DNA of 47,571 nt from a virus: UHGV virus genome UHGV-2008342. One strand, given 5' to 3'. Positions within the stretch are counted from its first letter, which is position 1. Each line of letters opens with the position of its first letter. Position numbers and translations under genes: made by a program. The notes beneath the pieces are model-generated. The model was given only the letters and a program-made list of their open reading frames with translations. It did no database searches and was not told the DNA's origin. Shown here one piece after another: positions 34,782-45,392 of this stretch.

Positions 34782-35033
34782 TTATTCTCCTGAAAAAGCA
34801 GAAAAGCCAGCTTTTATTCCGATCTCTTTCAATGCCTGTAATGAAGTGACAAACTCACCTTCGCGCAAGATAAATCCGTCCGTGACCCGAGCATCCACAA
34901 AATTAATTAACGCAGCCCCATTCTTTCGCAAACACATAATGCGGTAATGACTAACAAGATTTCCATTTTCAACGCACACAGCATAGAGGCCATCTTCACA
35001 AAAAATTTTACGCAGTTCTTCGATGTTCATCAT
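34782..35033 (-). CDS. hypothetical protein (83 aa), possibly the Rem equivalent
   Basis: ORF MMNIEELRKIFCEDGLYAVCVENGNLVSHYRIM... between ydfU and hokD. Length matches my recollection of K-12 Rem, but the sequence is not verified. Confidence 0.4.
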   Translation of the reverse strand: MMNIEELRKIFCEDGLYAVCVENGNLVSHYRIMCLRKNGAALINFVDARVTDGFILREGEFVTSLQALKEIGIKAGFSAFSGE

Positions 35034-40222: not shown

Positions 40223-40669
40223 TTATCGTTTTTTCCCTGTTCGTTGACAGATAACAGGCTTTCTATCTGTCAGTGCCAGAATCTGGCTTACCGGTATTTG
40301 CGTTTCATTCCATTAAAAAATCAGAACGCCGTGCGGCCTCAACACCCGAAAAGCTTCTTTAAATCTCTGTCGCAAATCATCACGCCAGGCATCTTTATTC
40401 AGCCGTCCATATTTCTTTCCCATCCAGGCGTTATCACCAACACGCTCAAGATGCGGAGGGTCTAATACAACCATCGAAAAAGATGCGTCTGCAAATGATA
40501 ATGCACGAAAATCTGCGATAATGTCAGGGCTGATAATCAAGCGTCTCCCATTGCGTAATGTGTATCCTTCTTTTCTGATATCGCTAAATATCGCCCGTTC
40601 GTCAGACTTATCGAACCAGAACATGCGGCTGCCACAGCACATATCAAGAATGGTTGCCGGTGCACTCAC
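40223..40669 (-). pseudogene. SAM-dependent DNA methyltransferase interrupted by an in-frame TAA
   Basis: 118-aa ORF with a DMCCGS motif-I-like segment and a DPPH motif-IV-like segment, ending ...HGVLIF-TAA. The same frame continues WNETQIPVSQILALTDRKPVICQRTGKKR for 29 codons. Confidence 0.55.
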
Positions 40670-41088
40670 TGCGCCACGTCCTGAAAATTACCCTGATAGA
40701 AAGCCAGTATGCGCTGCATAACTTCGCTCTTCCGGCACTCGCGACAGATTATGTTTAGGCGACTGTCGTAGCGACGTATTTCTCCGTCAGGTGATGACCA
40801 GATAAGGTCCGGATCAACCACAGCAGGTTTCTTCACCTTTGCCCTCGAGAGTTTTTTGCGGGCGTTTTGCCAGTCCTTACGCGCCTGTTCAGAGGGGAAT
40901 AACCCGTAGCCGGAGTTGTATACATCGCCACTGGCTACCAGCTCTCTGGCAAGAACGCTCATCAGATATCTAGTCGCACCTGTTTTAGCTTCCAGTTGCC
41001 GTAACGTCTCACGGCCGCTCTGGCGCACGAGTTCCACCACCTGCCATTTAATTTTTTCCCGCTCTTCTTGTGTAAAAACTTTTGCCAC
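40666..41088 (-). CDS. hypothetical protein (140 aa) immediately downstream of the O-like gene, in the position of a helicase loader
   Basis: MAKVFTQEEREKIKWQVVELVRQSGRETLRQLEAKTGATRYLMSVLARELVASGDVYNSGYG... No Walker motifs, so not P-like or DnaC-like. Confidence 0.5.
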   Translation of the reverse strand: MAKVFTQEEREKIKWQVVELVRQSGRETLRQLEAKTGATRYLMSVLARELVASGDVYNSGYGLFPSEQARKDWQNARKKLSRAKVKKPAVVDPDLIWSSPDGEIRRYDSRLNIICRECRKSEVMQRILAFYQGNFQDVAQ

Positions 41089-41128
41089 AAGTCCCCCTTA
41101 AAATTACCTCATGACCTGAAATCAACAC

Positions 41129-42148
41129 TTATCCTCTGAAACCAGGCGGAATTTCTGTATCCGGTTCAGAAATATGATTAACACAACGCTGCACAGGTGA
41201 ACGTCCCAGGCGGATGACCAGTTCGTCCCATTTTTCGCGGAGCTTTGACGGGCTCATGATGTTTTTTACCCAGAATGGATCTCGCTGAACCCGACCAAAC
41301 ATTTCGCAAATTTGTCTGTGGCTTCTGCCATCCAGCATCCGCATTGTGCGCACGTCATTGGCCCAGGCAGTCCAGTTAGGCTCTTTTGGTCGCATGATCT
41401 CGCCATCATCACTGGCTGCCTGTTCGTAGAGACCCACGATCCGCCCCCAGATCCACTGCGCACACGCCAAATCCTCCCTGCTACCCCACTGGCGTTTTTT
41501 CGCACTAAACACAACCGCGTCGGAGTTCCGGGTTAAAAAATCCTGTTCAGTCGTCTGCGGGTCCGGTTGCGAAGCTTCCGGACGAAAAGTGTTTTTATTC
41601 TCTGTAGTAATCTCTGTTGTATTCTCTGTAAGATCATCAGGCCATTTTGACCCGATGACATTGGGTCGTTTTGAACCAATGGAGCGTTTCATTTTGACCT
41701 CTTCCATCGTGTCATTTTGACCTGATGGAGCGGCGCATTTTGAACCGATGGATTCGCTCAATTTGCCACCATCTAAAAGCTCGCTCCCATAGTTGATCGT
41801 GTAGAAATTGGTCATATCGCGCTTTGATTTATTGAGCTTTTCACAACGCAAAAGCCCCAGCGTTTTCAGACTTGCAAACGCGCGCTTTAACGTTGACTCT
41901 GACCAGAATGGGAACTGTTCCAGCCATTGTTCCGTTGTGTTATAAATCCAGCGAACACCATCACATTCCATGCCGGAGTTGGTATCTCTCAACCAGTAGT
42001 GCAGTTGTTGCAAAACAATGGCTTCGTTTAAGCCAATTTTCATTGCCAGCTGCGTGTTTATAACCAGTGGGCGTTCAGCAAAAAGAAGGCTCATAATTCC
42101 ATCCAGCTTTTTGTTGGTATTGCTGTCGATACGCAAGCTTGAAAGCAA
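41129..42148 (-). CDS. replication initiator, lambda O-like replisome organiser
   Basis: 339-aa ORF in the lambda O position. Iteron-type direct repeats and an AT-rich tract lie inside the coding sequence. Start may be an internal Met (MSLLFAERPLV at 42094). Confidence 0.65.
   Translation of the reverse strand: MLSSLRIDSNTNKKLDGIMSLLFAERPLVINTQLAMKIGLNEAIVLQQLHYWLRDTNSGMECDGVRWIYNTTEQWLEQFPFWSESTLKRAFASLKTLGLLRCEKLNKSKRDMTNFYTINYGSELLDGGKLSESIGSKCAAPSGQNDTMEEVKMKRSIGSKRPNVIGSKWPDDLTENTTEITTENKNTFRPEASQPDPQTTEQDFLTRNSDAVVFSAKKRQWGSREDLACAQWIWGRIVGLYEQAASDDGEIMRPKEPNWTAWANDVRTMRMLDGRSHRQICEMFGRVQRDPFWVKNIMSPSKLREKWDELVIRLGRSPVQRCVNHISEPDTEIPPGFRG
41585..41780. repeat. ori: candidate origin of replication: 5-6 iterons with a roughly 24-bp period plus an adjacent AT-rich tract with short repeats
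   Basis: Repeats CCATTTTGACCCGATG / GTCGTTTTGAACCAATGGAG / TTCATTTTGACCTCTTCCATCG / GTCATTTTGACCTGATGGAG / GCATTTTGAACCGATGGA at 41641-41760. Then TTCTCTGTAGTAATCTCTGTTGTATTCTCTGTAAG at 41585-41640. Confidence 0.65.
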
Positions 42149-42596
42149 TTGCTTTTTCTATAAGTTCGTCAGTTTCACGATCCACTACGGCAGGATCAGC
42201 AAAAAGCAGTCCGGACTCCACCACATCGCCATATTCTTTGTTTAACCCGGCGATCATGCACGTGATGCTTTTTCCGTCAGTAATTTCACGATACAACCTG
42301 AAATCACTAATCCGGATAGCCTCCATAATCGCAGGCACTAGCGCCGTGAACTTTTCACGCTTATCCCTGGTGTCGATAGCCTTCCAGCGTTCGAATATCT
42401 TCACTCGATTAACACCAAGCGCTCGCTGATCAACCGCGCCACCTTCATCTGTGACACGCTGAACATCGATGTTCGGGCGCTCTTTCAAAGCCCAGAATGC
42501 TTCAGTGATTAATATCGTCGCCTGCTCCTGTGTCATTCCTGGTCGACATATCCAGGCATCCAGAGCCTCACGAGCCTGTTCAGGAGTGATTTTCAT
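42075..42596 (-). CDS. early protein in the cII/YdaT position between the cro-like gene and O
   Basis: 173-aa ORF MKITPEQAREALDAWICRPGMTQEQATILITEAFWALKERPNIDVQRV... Its length (96+77) suggests it is the intact form of the K-12 ydfX/ydfW fragments; that is inference. Confidence 0.5.
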   Translation of the reverse strand: MKITPEQAREALDAWICRPGMTQEQATILITEAFWALKERPNIDVQRVTDEGGAVDQRALGVNRVKIFERWKAIDTRDKREKFTALVPAIMEAIRISDFRLYREITDGKSITCMIAGLNKEYGDVVESGLLFADPAVVDRETDELIEKAIAFKLAYRQQYQQKAGWNYEPSFC

Positions 42597-42810
42597 TGTT
42601 CAACCGCCCCGCCCGCTTCGTCTTACGATATTCATCATAAACTTTGGGATCATACTGAAGCTCCCCGCCAGATGCCTCCTGTAGACGCATCGCGCGACCT
42701 TCGGGAACTAAATCCCCTTTCCAGCTATAAAGCGAAGCCAAACGAATACCTGCTGCTTGTGCAAGTTTTGTTTTTGAACCGAAATACAAAAGAGCGTCAG
42801 TTTTAAGCAT
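42580..42810 (-). CDS. dicC: DicC, cro-like regulator
   Basis: 76 aa MLKTDALLYFGSKTKLAQAAGIRLASLYSWKGDLVPEGRAMRLQEASGGELQYDPKVYDEYRK. Divergent from dicA. Confidence 0.85.
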   Translation of the reverse strand: MLKTDALLYFGSKTKLAQAAGIRLASLYSWKGDLVPEGRAMRLQEASGGELQYDPKVYDEYRKTKRAGRLNNENHS

Positions 42811-42893
42811 TTAAAACACCTTTATTGTTAGTCATAACTAACAAGATAGATGTTAACAAAAACATAGTCAATACGATTTAGCATTAGCTAACT
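42811..42893. promoter_or_regulatory. dicA-dicC divergent promoter and operator region
   Basis: Perfect 20-bp palindrome TTGTTAGTCATAACTAACAA at 42825-42844 and palindrome TTAGCATTAGCTAA at 42878-42891. A related half-site TGTTAGTCAT lies downstream of dicA near 43372. Confidence 0.6.
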
Positions 42894-43301
42894 ATGGAAA
42901 CAAAAAATTTAACTATCGGCGAACGCATCAGGTATCGTCGGAAAAACCTCAAACACACCCAAAGGTCTCTTGCTAAAGCCCTGAAAATCTCCCATGTGTC
43001 TGTATCACAATGGGAACGGGGTGATAGTGAACCTACAGGGAAGAACCTTTTTGCCCTCAGCAAAGTATTGCAATGCTCACCAACATGGATTCTATTTGGC
43101 GATGAAGACAAGCAACCAACACCACCTGTTGAGAAGCCAGTTGCCTTATCCCCCAAAGAACTAGAGCTCCTTGAGCTGTTTAATGCACTGCCAGAATCAG
43201 AACAGGATACCCAGCTCGCCGAAATGCGAGCTCGAGTAAGAAACTTCAATAAACTCTTTGAAGAATTACTAAAAGCCCGTCAGCGGACAAATAAAAGATA
43301 A
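42894..43301 (+). CDS. dicA: DicA, HTH-XRE repressor
   Basis: 135 aa METKNLTIGERIRYRRKNLKHTQRSLAKALKISHVSVSQWERGDSEPTGKNLFALSKVLQCSPTWILFG. Confidence 0.9.
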   Translation: METKNLTIGERIRYRRKNLKHTQRSLAKALKISHVSVSQWERGDSEPTGKNLFALSKVLQCSPTWILFGDEDKQPTPPVEKPVALSPKELELLELFNALPESEQDTQLAEMRARVRNFNKLFEELLKARQRTNKR

Positions 43302-43467
43302 CATCATCAATGAGTTATCTTTTACCACATCAATTATGTTAGCTATAGCATACAAAATCACTTGACCGATATGTTAGTCATGGCTAATCTTGTTTGCATC
43401 AACACACCGCACGGTGTTCTCAGCAAACAGTTCCGCTACCCCAGCGTTAAGGGGAAATGAGGTCAGC

Positions 43468-43623
43468 ATGGATACTATCGATCTTGGCAACAACGAATCT
43501 CTGGTGTACGGCGTGTTTCCAAACCAGGACGGTACGTTCACCGCGATGACGTATACCAAAAGCAAAACGTTTAAAACCGAAAATGGTGCCCGTCGCTGGC
43601 TGGAAAGAAACTCAGGTGAGTGA
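43468..43623 (+). CDS. ydfA: YdfA
   Basis: 51 aa MDTIDLGNNESLVYGVFPNQDGTFTAMTYTKSKTFKTENGARRWLERNSGE. ATG at 43468 with a GGGGAAATGAGG SD. Confidence 0.8.
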   Translation: MDTIDLGNNESLVYGVFPNQDGTFTAMTYTKSKTFKTENGARRWLERNSGE

Positions 43624-43624
43624 T

Positions 43625-43753
43625 ATGGATTTCGACACAATCATGGAAAAGGCTTACGAAGAATACTTCGAAGGTCTTGCCGACGGCGAAGAAGCTCTCA
43701 GCTTCAACGAATTTAAACAGGCGCTTTCCAGTTCGGCAAAATCTAACGGCTGA
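43625..43753 (+). CDS. ydfB: YdfB
   Basis: 42 aa MDFDTIMEKAYEEYFEGLADGEEALSFNEFKQALSSSAKSNG. Starts 2 nt after the ydfA stop. Confidence 0.75.
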   Translation: MDFDTIMEKAYEEYFEGLADGEEALSFNEFKQALSSSAKSNG

Positions 43754-43782
43754 TAAGCGAAACAGCACCGCGAGGAATCAGT

Positions 43783-44001
43783 ATGCAGAAACGAGAACCC
43801 GTCATCATCGCGCCAGACTATACCGATGATGAACTTTATGAGTGGATGCGCCAGAAAATTAATGCAGCGCAGGATCTGAAATGGGCCAATGAAGCCAGGG
43901 CTAAGCAGGCTGAAAATCTGTCCGCTCTGGAGCAGGATATCACCAGGCTGGAAAAAGCAGCGGCATTAAGCATTGCAAGAATGATTACATACCCACGTTA
44001 A
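43783..44001 (+). CDS. ydfC: YdfC
   Basis: 72 aa MQKREPVIIAPDYTDDELYEWMRQKINAAQDLKWANEARAKQAENLSALEQDITRLEKAAALSIARMITYPR. Confidence 0.8.
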   Translation: MQKREPVIIAPDYTDDELYEWMRQKINAAQDLKWANEARAKQAENLSALEQDITRLEKAAALSIARMITYPR

Positions 44002-44023: not shown

Positions 44024-44431
44024 ATGGAATTTAAAGATTTACCAAAAGAAATCCAGACAATTGCTGCAACGACTCTCGGTGATAGTCTGGTGAAAATTGA
44101 CCCGGCATACACCAAAAAAGAAACCATCGATAATATGGTTTGTAATGTGCGCAATGCTTTTTCTGGGCTATATGGTTCTGATAATCAAAAGCAGGAAAGC
44201 GATGTTAATAAACGGGTAATTTCTGTTTGCGTGAATGGCCATGTTCTTTCATCAATCAAAACAGAAACGGCGACAGTCTTCGATTGCCTTTGCATTGTAC
44301 AGAGCCTTGTTGATGCCCTGTTTCGTTCAGTGAATTTAGAAAATGATGCAAATCTGCGAGGGCGCACAATAGCACATCCATATGCACATACTTTAGGCTC
44401 TGTGGATATCAAAGATCCCACAAATCTTTAA
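44024..44431 (+). CDS. hypothetical protein A (135 aa), part of a low-GC insert in the dicB operon
   Basis: ORF MEFKDLPKEIQTIAATTLGDSLVKIDPAYTKKETIDNMVCNVRNAFSGLYGSDNQKQ... No family recognised. From memory, not present between ydfC and dicF in K-12. Confidence 0.5.
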   Translation: MEFKDLPKEIQTIAATTLGDSLVKIDPAYTKKETIDNMVCNVRNAFSGLYGSDNQKQESDVNKRVISVCVNGHVLSSIKTETATVFDCLCIVQSLVDALFRSVNLENDANLRGRTIAHPYAHTLGSVDIKDPTNL

Positions 44432-44642
44432 TGAAATAGTTAACGCGAATTGTACTTGCTCTTTCAGTTGCTTTCAGAATACGCGTTGAAACTGCTGGCG
44501 GTAATTTGGTATTCCATTTATTAAAATCATGCCCGGGAAAGTACTCTTCGAAAATACTTTTAACTGCAGACTCGCCTATTGAAATGCTGCTTACCATGCG
44601 ATTTTGATAAAGGCATTTAGCAATAAGAGTTGATTTTAACAT
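44409..44642 (-). CDS. hypothetical protein B (77 aa), convergent with A and overlapping it by 23 bp
   Basis: ORF MLKSTLIAKCLYQNRMVSSISIGESAVKSIFEEYFPGHDFNKWNTKLPPAVSTRILKATERASTIRVNYFIKDLWDL. Antisense to the surrounding early operon. Confidence 0.45.
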   Translation of the reverse strand: MLKSTLIAKCLYQNRMVSSISIGESAVKSIFEEYFPGHDFNKWNTKLPPAVSTRILKATERASTIRVNYFIKDLWDL

Positions 44643-44974
44643 TCACCCTCCTGAGGGTTGGTAATTAAGGAGTTCTCCACGGGTGAAGTGGAGTGCGTGC
44701 GCCGGACACGGGTGAACATCCGGCACTGACAGTTTACTGAAAGGATATATCCCTGAAAAGTCAGGGCATAACGCGAAAGCGCACGGCGAGGTAGCTGGTT
44801 CATAGATAGCCTGTCGTTAAATTTTCGTCGACCGTGCGCTTCCGGTTGTGGCAATCCGCGAAATGGCGCGGCGGTAAGTATGGCGGGGTTATTCCTTACC
44901 CCCATTGGTGGCACCGGGTTGTCAGGTTGACCATACGCCTGAGTGACAACCCCGCTACAACAACCCATGTTGAT

Positions 44975-45028
44975 TACCTTTTGGCGGGTATCCGTTTTTT
45001 GTTTTCCCTTGTGATACCCGCCCTTTTT
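44975..45028 (+). ncRNA. dicF: DicF-like small RNA (variant sequence); 5' end approximate
   Basis: Lies between ydfC and dicB. Terminator hairpin GGCGGGTATC...GATACCCGCC followed by CTTTTT; the downstream sequence AAAGTGAATTTTGTGATG matches my recollection of the K-12 dicF 3' flank. The body differs from the K-12 DicF sequence as I recall it. Confidence 0.5.
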
Positions 45029-45209
45029 AAAGTGAATTTTGTGATGCGGTGAATGCGGCTCAGCGCACGCGGAACAGTTAAAAAGCGATTAGTTCCCCCG
45101 TATCGGGTGTTTATGGGTTTCCCTGTATCCGGCGTTAATTGTTAACTGGTTAACGTCACCTGGAGGCACCAGGCACCGCATCACAAAATTCATTGTTGAG
45201 GACGCGATA

Positions 45210-45392
45210 ATGGAAACGTTATTACCAAACGTCAATACGTCTGAAGGTTGTTTTGAAATTGGTGTCAGAATCAGTAACCCTGTATTTACTGAAGATGCCA
45301 TTAATAAGAGAAAACACGAACGGGAGCTATTAAATCAAATATGCATTGTTTCAATGCTGGCCCGTTTACGCCTGATGCAAAAAGGACGCTGA
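45210..45392 (+). CDS. dicB: DicB cell-division inhibitor
   Basis: 60 aa METLLPNVNTSEGCFEIGVRISNPVFTEDAINKRKHERELLNQICIVSMLARLRLMQKGR. Confidence 0.85.
   Translation: METLLPNVNTSEGCFEIGVRISNPVFTEDAINKRKHERELLNQICIVSMLARLRLMQKGR

Follow-up and report, generated by a model that had tools for sequence, protein, structure and literature searches.

Paired dyads on both sides of dicA very probably form the operator set of a Qin-type prophage immunity switch

The stretch of DNA analysed here (the 47,571-nt virus genome UHGV-2008342, hereafter the window) carries on both sides of dicA what we regard, with high confidence, as the operator set of a P22/lambda-type prophage immunity switch, of the kind found in the Qin-type dicA-dicC module. 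Four dyads in a 7 + 4 + 7 layout with a half-site consensus of tGTTAGy were located, two in the dicC-dicA intergenic region (Oc and Oa) and two between dicA and ydfA (OB2 and OB1, labels coined in this analysis); the coordinates of all dyads are given without strand. The first-pass annotation of this DNA had arrived at one and a half sites, Oa and OB2 having been missed. Positions 42760-43480 of the window differ from the Qin prophage of Escherichia coli K-12 MG1655 by two substitutions only, both in dicA, and the genes, their order and the promoters are the same. As both intergenic regions are base-for-base identical, the K-12 literature applies directly to the window. The operators of DicA and DicC have already been described in K-12 Qin (Yun et al. 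2012, PMC3441716; Ragunathan et al. 2023, PMC10448788), and the present result is a correct re-identification with no new biology. The switch is a textbook case of a cryptic prophage with a working immunity circuit, and what it silences is the toxic division inhibitor DicB, plus DicF in K-12.

The organisation of the region is that of a lambdoid (P22-type) immunity region, with divergent repressor and cro-like genes, a CI/C2-type helix-turn-helix repressor accompanied by a Cro homologue, several intergenic dyads that overlap the divergent promoters, and a second set of sites of the same specificity at a PL-like promoter. The cro-like gene dicC (42580-42810, minus strand) encodes a regulator of 76 aa, as indicated by a Pfam match to P22_Cro (E = 1.7e-11), by similarity to the P22 Cro structure 1rzs (E = 6.8e-6) and by the RefSeq annotation of close relatives. 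The repressor gene dicA (42894-43301, plus strand) encodes a protein of 135 aa with an N-terminal helix-turn-helix (Pfam HTH_3 at residues 12-66, together with a match to Phage_CI_repr), and residues 7-71 match the N-terminal domain of P22 C2 in the PDB with an E-value of 8.2e-20. DicA gives no Pfam match to Peptidase_S24 and has no autocleavage domain, so that the S24 peptidase domain with RecA-stimulated self-cleavage is a lambdoid trait absent from this region. Its short length (135 aa) and the missing S24 domain place DicA in the antirepressor-controlled subclass of repressors, not in the SOS-cleavable one.

Oc lies on the dicC side of the 83-bp dicC-dicA gap. The site, TTGTTAGTCATAACTAACAA, occurs as a single exact copy in the window (42825-42844; 0.01 copies expected by chance), and its 18-bp core at 42826-42843 reads TGTTAGT-CATA-ACTAACA. 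A perfect 20-bp palindrome had been claimed at this place; the location holds, whereas the perfection does not, as the site differs from its own reverse complement at two positions (9 of 10 symmetric pairs are matched). It is built of perfect 8-bp arms (TTGTTAGT and ACTAACAA) around an asymmetric 4-bp CATA centre, the outer pair of which is non-complementary. A perfect 18-bp form, TGTTAGTCATGACTAACA, is present in a 91%-identical allele of another E. coli (L003). The 20-mer of the window is letter for letter the published Oc sequence of the K-12 Qin prophage (PMC3441716). In that work, the 20-mer cloned in pHL1105 was bound by DicA in vivo, as read from an rpsL reporter, a single A-to-C change at Oc position 16 (Oc*) abolished DicA binding, and high-copy clones of the promoter region were viable only with mutations in Oc (PMC3441716). 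In terms of the half-site, Oc* is altered at position 4, where 7 of the 8 half-sites found here have a T.

The consensus scan places the dicC promoter (the PR equivalent) at 42843-42871 on the minus strand, with a -35 element TTGACT (42871-42866), a 17-bp spacer and a -10 element TATCTT (42848-42843). The -35 element (AGTCAA) is conserved across immunity types A to E (see below). In the published account, putative -10 and -35 elements are underlined and a dicC transcription start is marked in the dicC-dicA region (Figures 5B and S3 of PMC3441716). Oc overlaps both the -10 element and the predicted start, and DicA bound at Oc would thus silence dicC. This agrees with K-12, where DicA at Oc represses dicC by ∼700-fold and activates dicA (PMC3441716); in the mechanism proposed here, a DicA dimer would sit on an 18-bp dyad of two 7-bp tGTTAGy half-sites with 4 bp between them, shutting off dicC and stimulating transcription of its own gene. 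The DicA site at dicC is also recovered by Reg-Seq, where it was used as a gold standard (PMC7567609).

The second set of sites lies downstream of dicA. An exact copy of TGTTAGTCAT occupies 43372-43381, past the dicA stop codon and ahead of ydfA. It had been listed as a half-site related to the upstream palindrome; the sequence is indeed present, but it forms one arm, the left, of a complete dyad inside a promoter, namely OB1 (43372-43389, TGTTAGT-CATG-GCTAATC), which contains a TTAG-N6-CTAA match. OB1 is the top Oc match in the dicA-ydfA intergenic region, agreeing with Oc at 14 of 16 positions at a distance of 546 bp. The second-best Oc match in the same region is OB2 (43337-43354, TGTTAGC-TATA-GCATACA; matrix score 16.1), which has a degenerate right arm and lies 35 bp from OB1, centre to centre. 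A third dyad was sought here and the candidate at 43391-43408 was rejected, as it has a good left half only (score 9.6) and this half is not conserved in L003; the count at this promoter is two clear dyads, where the lambdoid pattern is three operators per promoter, bound cooperatively in pairs.

Both dyads are arranged around a promoter read from the sequence on the plus strand, dicBp (the PL equivalent, 43362-43390), with a -35 element TTGACC (43362-43367), a 17-bp spacer, a -10 element TAATCT (43385-43390) and a predicted start at ∼43397. A simple promoter scan missed it because only 3 of the 6 positions of the -10 element agree with the consensus. The same layout of -35, 17-bp spacer and -10 with a dyad in the spacer is repeated in immunity types B, C and D, and in BLAST comparisons of prophages that differ in immunity, homology starts again at ∼43397, the expected transcript start, which supports the assignment; a mapped start site for dicBp was not found in the accessible literature. 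OB1 fills the dicBp spacer and overlaps the -10 element, while OB2 lies just upstream of the -35 element. With the spacer and -10 occupied and a second site just beyond the -35, DicA at OB1 would sterically exclude RNA polymerase and silence ydfABC-dicB, and OB2 may act as a cooperative partner. Between dicA and this promoter, a hairpin followed by a U run (UUUU) at 43292-43324 on the plus strand overlaps the dicA stop codon and consists of a perfect 11-nt inverted repeat (-11.8 kcal/mol, z-score -5.0); in L003, the stem is extended by changes on either side. This hairpin is probably an intrinsic terminator, which would insulate dicBp from read-through out of dicA.

Repression at dicBp itself is documented in K-12, where transcription from dicBp rises 22-fold on deletion of dicA and is unchanged on deletion of dicC, and where the operators at dicCp and dicBp have been likened to lambda PR and PL (PMC10448788). 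The exact sites are assigned here from the sequence and from the covariation between immunity types described below. The base-level placement of the two dicBp dyads would be a modest addition, since the Reg-Seq authors in 2020 called the location unknown. In their words, the DicA site at dicB is 'low-evidence' and 'the binding location is unknown' (PMC7567609). This assessment leaves some room for a scheme in which the downstream dyads are bound by DicC alone and DicA silences dicBp indirectly, for example by excluding DicC or by way of a further factor, the more so as the sole direct occupancy data found for the dicBp side are for DicC: published ChIP-seq gives one inferred DicC site on each side of dicA, and across the genome a palindromic motif is enriched in the regions bound by DicC. 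We nevertheless consider a DicC-only arrangement very unlikely. In lambdoid switches, the repressor and Cro use common operators. Repression of dicBp does not run through DicC, because the dicC deletion is without effect and the dicA deletion gives the 22-fold increase, and the near-identity of OB1 with Oc ties it to a site that is proven to be bound by DicA (PMC3441716). Direct control of dicBp by DicA at OB1, and possibly OB2, is therefore the preferred reading. That a repressor controls both the cro-like promoter and the operon downstream of dicA, as the first-pass annotation had proposed, is thus borne out by the literature on the identical K-12 sequence (PMC3441716, PMC10448788) and by the comparison of immunity types.

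The four dyads stand out from the remainder of the window. Among the eight half-sites, T3 and G6 are invariant, and T4 and A5 are found in 7 of 8. Three copies of the core TTAG-N6-CTAA were counted in the 47.5-kb window (42828, 42878 and 43374), all confined to 42828-43387, compared with 0.31 copies expected; none of 100 shuffles reached three. With a half-site matrix, the four dyads reach 16.1-19.4 bits and the runner-up in the window 11.8, compared with an average of 13.0 for the best site of random sequence; as the matrix was built from the same four dyads, these scores speak only to the absence of further full sites, and by this measure the 47.5-kb window contains no fifth one. The motif search suggested along with the original palindrome was run as GTTAGTC-NN-GACTAAC and returned only Oc and OB1 at ≤2 mismatches. 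A mismatch scan with the full Oc arms is uninformative below 12 of 16, since chance gives 72 hits at ≥10 and 12.5 hits at ≥11, and it was replaced by the TTAG-N6-CTAA core and the half-site matrix.

The abundance of such loose matches (10-11 of 16) in an AT-rich window is what could be cited for the view that the two intergenic regions resemble each other because both consist of AT-rich promoter sequence or descend from an old duplication, and not because they contain protein-binding sites. The clustering of all three TTAG-N6-CTAA cores at this locus runs counter to this view, as does the loss of DicA binding by a point mutation in Oc (PMC3441716), and the view is effectively refuted by mutants and ChIP results for K-12, where the sequence is identical. 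In addition, among the five immunity types the dyads flanking the repressor gene change their sequence in concert, yet keep their symmetry and position. We regard a by-product origin as extremely unlikely.

For the covariation analysis, the window was compared with six other E. coli prophage loci, giving seven loci of five immunity types. Many E. coli prophages have the ydfA leader in common and carry differing repressor modules upstream. In type A' (L003 and L004), all sites are kept with changes in the flanking bases. Elsewhere, the sites on both sides of the repressor gene are TGTTAGA-N4-TCTAACA in type B (ATCC 25922), TTGAG-TTTT-CTCAA in type C (L007), of the CCTTAG-N6-CTAAGG type in type D (L009) and of the TACCC-N-GGGTA type in type E (CFT073). 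In each type, two sites between the repressor gene and ydfA match the Oc equivalent of that type. When the best two matches are summed, the mean is 28.7 of 36 (minimum 25) within a type, compared with a mean of 20.7 (maximum 25) against other types, and every own-type match lies above shuffled sequence, being reached by at most 4 of 2000 shuffles. The two sites are 35-36 bp apart in types A to D, in constant register with the -35 and -10 elements, and 25 bp apart in type E (CFT073); the site at the OB2 position is accordingly retained in types A', B, C and D, 35-36 bp from the OB1 equivalent. This covariation independently supports one immunity-specific pair of proteins acting at both promoters, and its demonstration across the immunity types of this prophage family would be a further modest addition.

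Type-specific covariation also bears on the proposal that the sites serve mainly host nucleoid proteins (H-NS with Cnu or Hha) in the silencing of AT-rich prophage DNA, with DicA in a secondary role. The CnuK9E-H-NS complex does antagonise DicA at Oc and lowers dicA expression, yet binding in the reporter assay depends on dicA and is restored by a plasmid supplying DicA (PMC3441716), and dyad symmetry combined with type-specific covariation suits a sequence-specific dimer and not H-NS. A primary role for nucleoid proteins is thus highly improbable, and even taken together this proposal, the DicC-only arrangement and the by-product origin account for only a small part of the probability. DicA dimers on dyads of the immunity type remain the favoured explanation for the arrangement.

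Two more sites lie in the dicC-dicA intergenic region. Oa (42876-42893, ATTTAGC-ATTA-GCTAACT; matrix score 16.3) contains the TTAG-N6-CTAA match at 42878-42891 and directly adjoins the dicA start codon (42894), and immunity types B and D have equivalent TTAG-N6-CTAA dyads in its place. Another element, ATGTTAACAAAAACAT (42850-42865), has 5-bp arms and a 6-bp centre, a geometry unlike that of the other sites, and occupies the spacer of the dicC promoter; from its middle position, it is probably the Om of the literature. When Om and Oa were each cloned alone, DicA did not bind them (data not shown in that paper; PMC3441716). Because DicA bound neither of them in isolation, they may be DicC sites or sites that are filled only cooperatively; in the mechanism proposed here, Oa and Om may be weak or DicC-preferred sites. 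Apart from its role as an operator, Oa reaches the ATG, and dicA has no recognisable Shine-Dalgarno sequence at 42876-42896; both points hold for immunity types B, C and D as well. They suggest that the dicA mRNA is leaderless or nearly so. The cI mRNA of lambda made from PRM is of the leaderless type, and a parallel may be drawn for dicA. In published work, no obvious promoter was found for dicA.

A related system is the immC region of P22 (C2/Cro with OR and OL). The N-terminal domain of DicA is homologous to that of C2 and DicC to P22 Cro, and in immC, as here, the two genes are divergent, share intergenic operators and are accompanied by a second set at the leftward promoter past the repressor gene. 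The P22 operator ATTTAAG-ATAT-CTTAAAT has the same 18-bp layout of 7 + 4 + 7 as the dic dyads, with a half-site ATTTAAG to be set beside the dic half-site tGTTAGy. The dic system differs from P22 in that dicBp has two clear dyads and not three, and in that RecA does not induce DicA, because the 135-aa protein is without the S24 autocleavage domain. The bistable logic of lambda CI/Cro (OR1-3, OL1-3) is likewise similar, with the repressor blocking the cro-side promoter and activating its own gene, and an operator overlapping the leftward promoter in both systems; the lambda operator sequence is unrelated, however, and the dic system is without RecA-mediated cleavage. For induction, prophages of the Gifsy type are comparable: their repressor is without a cleavage site, and a small antirepressor inactivates it, a part played here by Rem.

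As DicA has no self-cleavage domain, induction would depend on the Rem encoded in the window, or else on the switch flipping spontaneously or under stress. The antirepressor gene rem (34782-35033, minus strand) encodes a protein that relieves repression by DicA; over 83 aa, this protein has 100% identity to K-12 Rem. In K-12, Rem induces dicBp by 165-fold, independently of RecA and SOS, and flipping of the switch depends on DicC (PMC10448788). In the scheme proposed here, the Cro-like DicC, present on both sides of dicA by ChIP-seq and known to repress dicA, would oppose the repressor and so give a bistable switch. An 11-mer consisting of the left half of Oc plus its centre, TTGTTAGTCAT, was observed in two copies only in the window, one in Oc and one in rem (34947-34957, minus strand), compared with 0.03 copies expected; in rem, it is read as the codons L-V-S-H and is present in the K-12 gene too. 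As a matching right half-site is absent, the rem copy is not a full operator and may be a coincidence.

The operator sets flanking dicA are 546 bp apart, centre to centre, and a DNA loop around dicA, in which DicA joins both sets and the rem half-site serves as an auxiliary contact, would be suggested by this spacing and by the unlikely repeat of the 11-mer. In lambda, OL and OR cooperate through a DNA loop. Types A and B have a spacing of 546-547 bp and type C one of 572 bp, so that the helical phasing between Oc and OB1 is not conserved, and we consider such a loop unlikely.

The operon governed by dicBp begins with ydfA, ydfB and ydfC (43468-44001, plus strand), identified from their translations and the RefSeq annotation of relatives; ydfA spans 43468-43623 and its product is Pfam DUF1391. 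The distal toxic cargo is the cell-division inhibitor gene dicB (45210-45392, plus strand), assigned from its ORF and translation and from an annotated dicB at the matching position in strain C11. The window departs from K-12 Qin in the two dicA substitutions, in two extra ORFs between ydfC and dicB and in the sequence at the dicF position. The operon had been named ydfABC-dicF-dicB, a name that does not fit the window, as no canonical dicF was detected with the K-12 dicF pattern at ≤3 mismatches, at the Rfam gathering threshold or at Rfam E-values up to 1. A different sequence occupies the K-12 dicF position (44940-45035), and it contains a strong hairpin followed by a U run (GGCGGGUAUC...GAUACCCGCC-UUUUU; -22.9 kcal/mol, z-score -3.5), which could be a different small RNA or a terminator only. 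Next to it, at 45035-45187, there is a sub-threshold match to STnc100 (34.3 bits, compared with a gathering score of 47).

Two ORFs absent from K-12 were observed at 44024-44642, in the interval from ydfC to the dicF position. One encodes 135 aa (44024-44431, plus strand) and the other 77 aa (44409-44642, minus strand); they overlap tail to tail, and both are hypothetical proteins in relatives such as L003. The pair may be an inserted accessory (moron-like) module. On the other side of the switch, the segment beside dicC (40666-42596) holds full YdaT-family and replication-type genes. The YdaT-family gene lies at 42075-42596 and is accompanied by one of 339 aa and by a DUF977 gene, whereas in K-12 Qin only ydfX and ydfW are left at this position, as remnants. 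With these full genes kept, the prophage in the window is less decayed than Qin.

Finally, the ydfA leader (43397-43470, ∼70 nt) is 95-98% conserved in E. coli prophages that carry unrelated immunity modules upstream. No unusual structure was detected in this leader (z = +0.57), and recombination breakpoints lie at ∼43397 and ∼43430. The conservation of the leader possibly marks a mosaic joint or a regulatory site.
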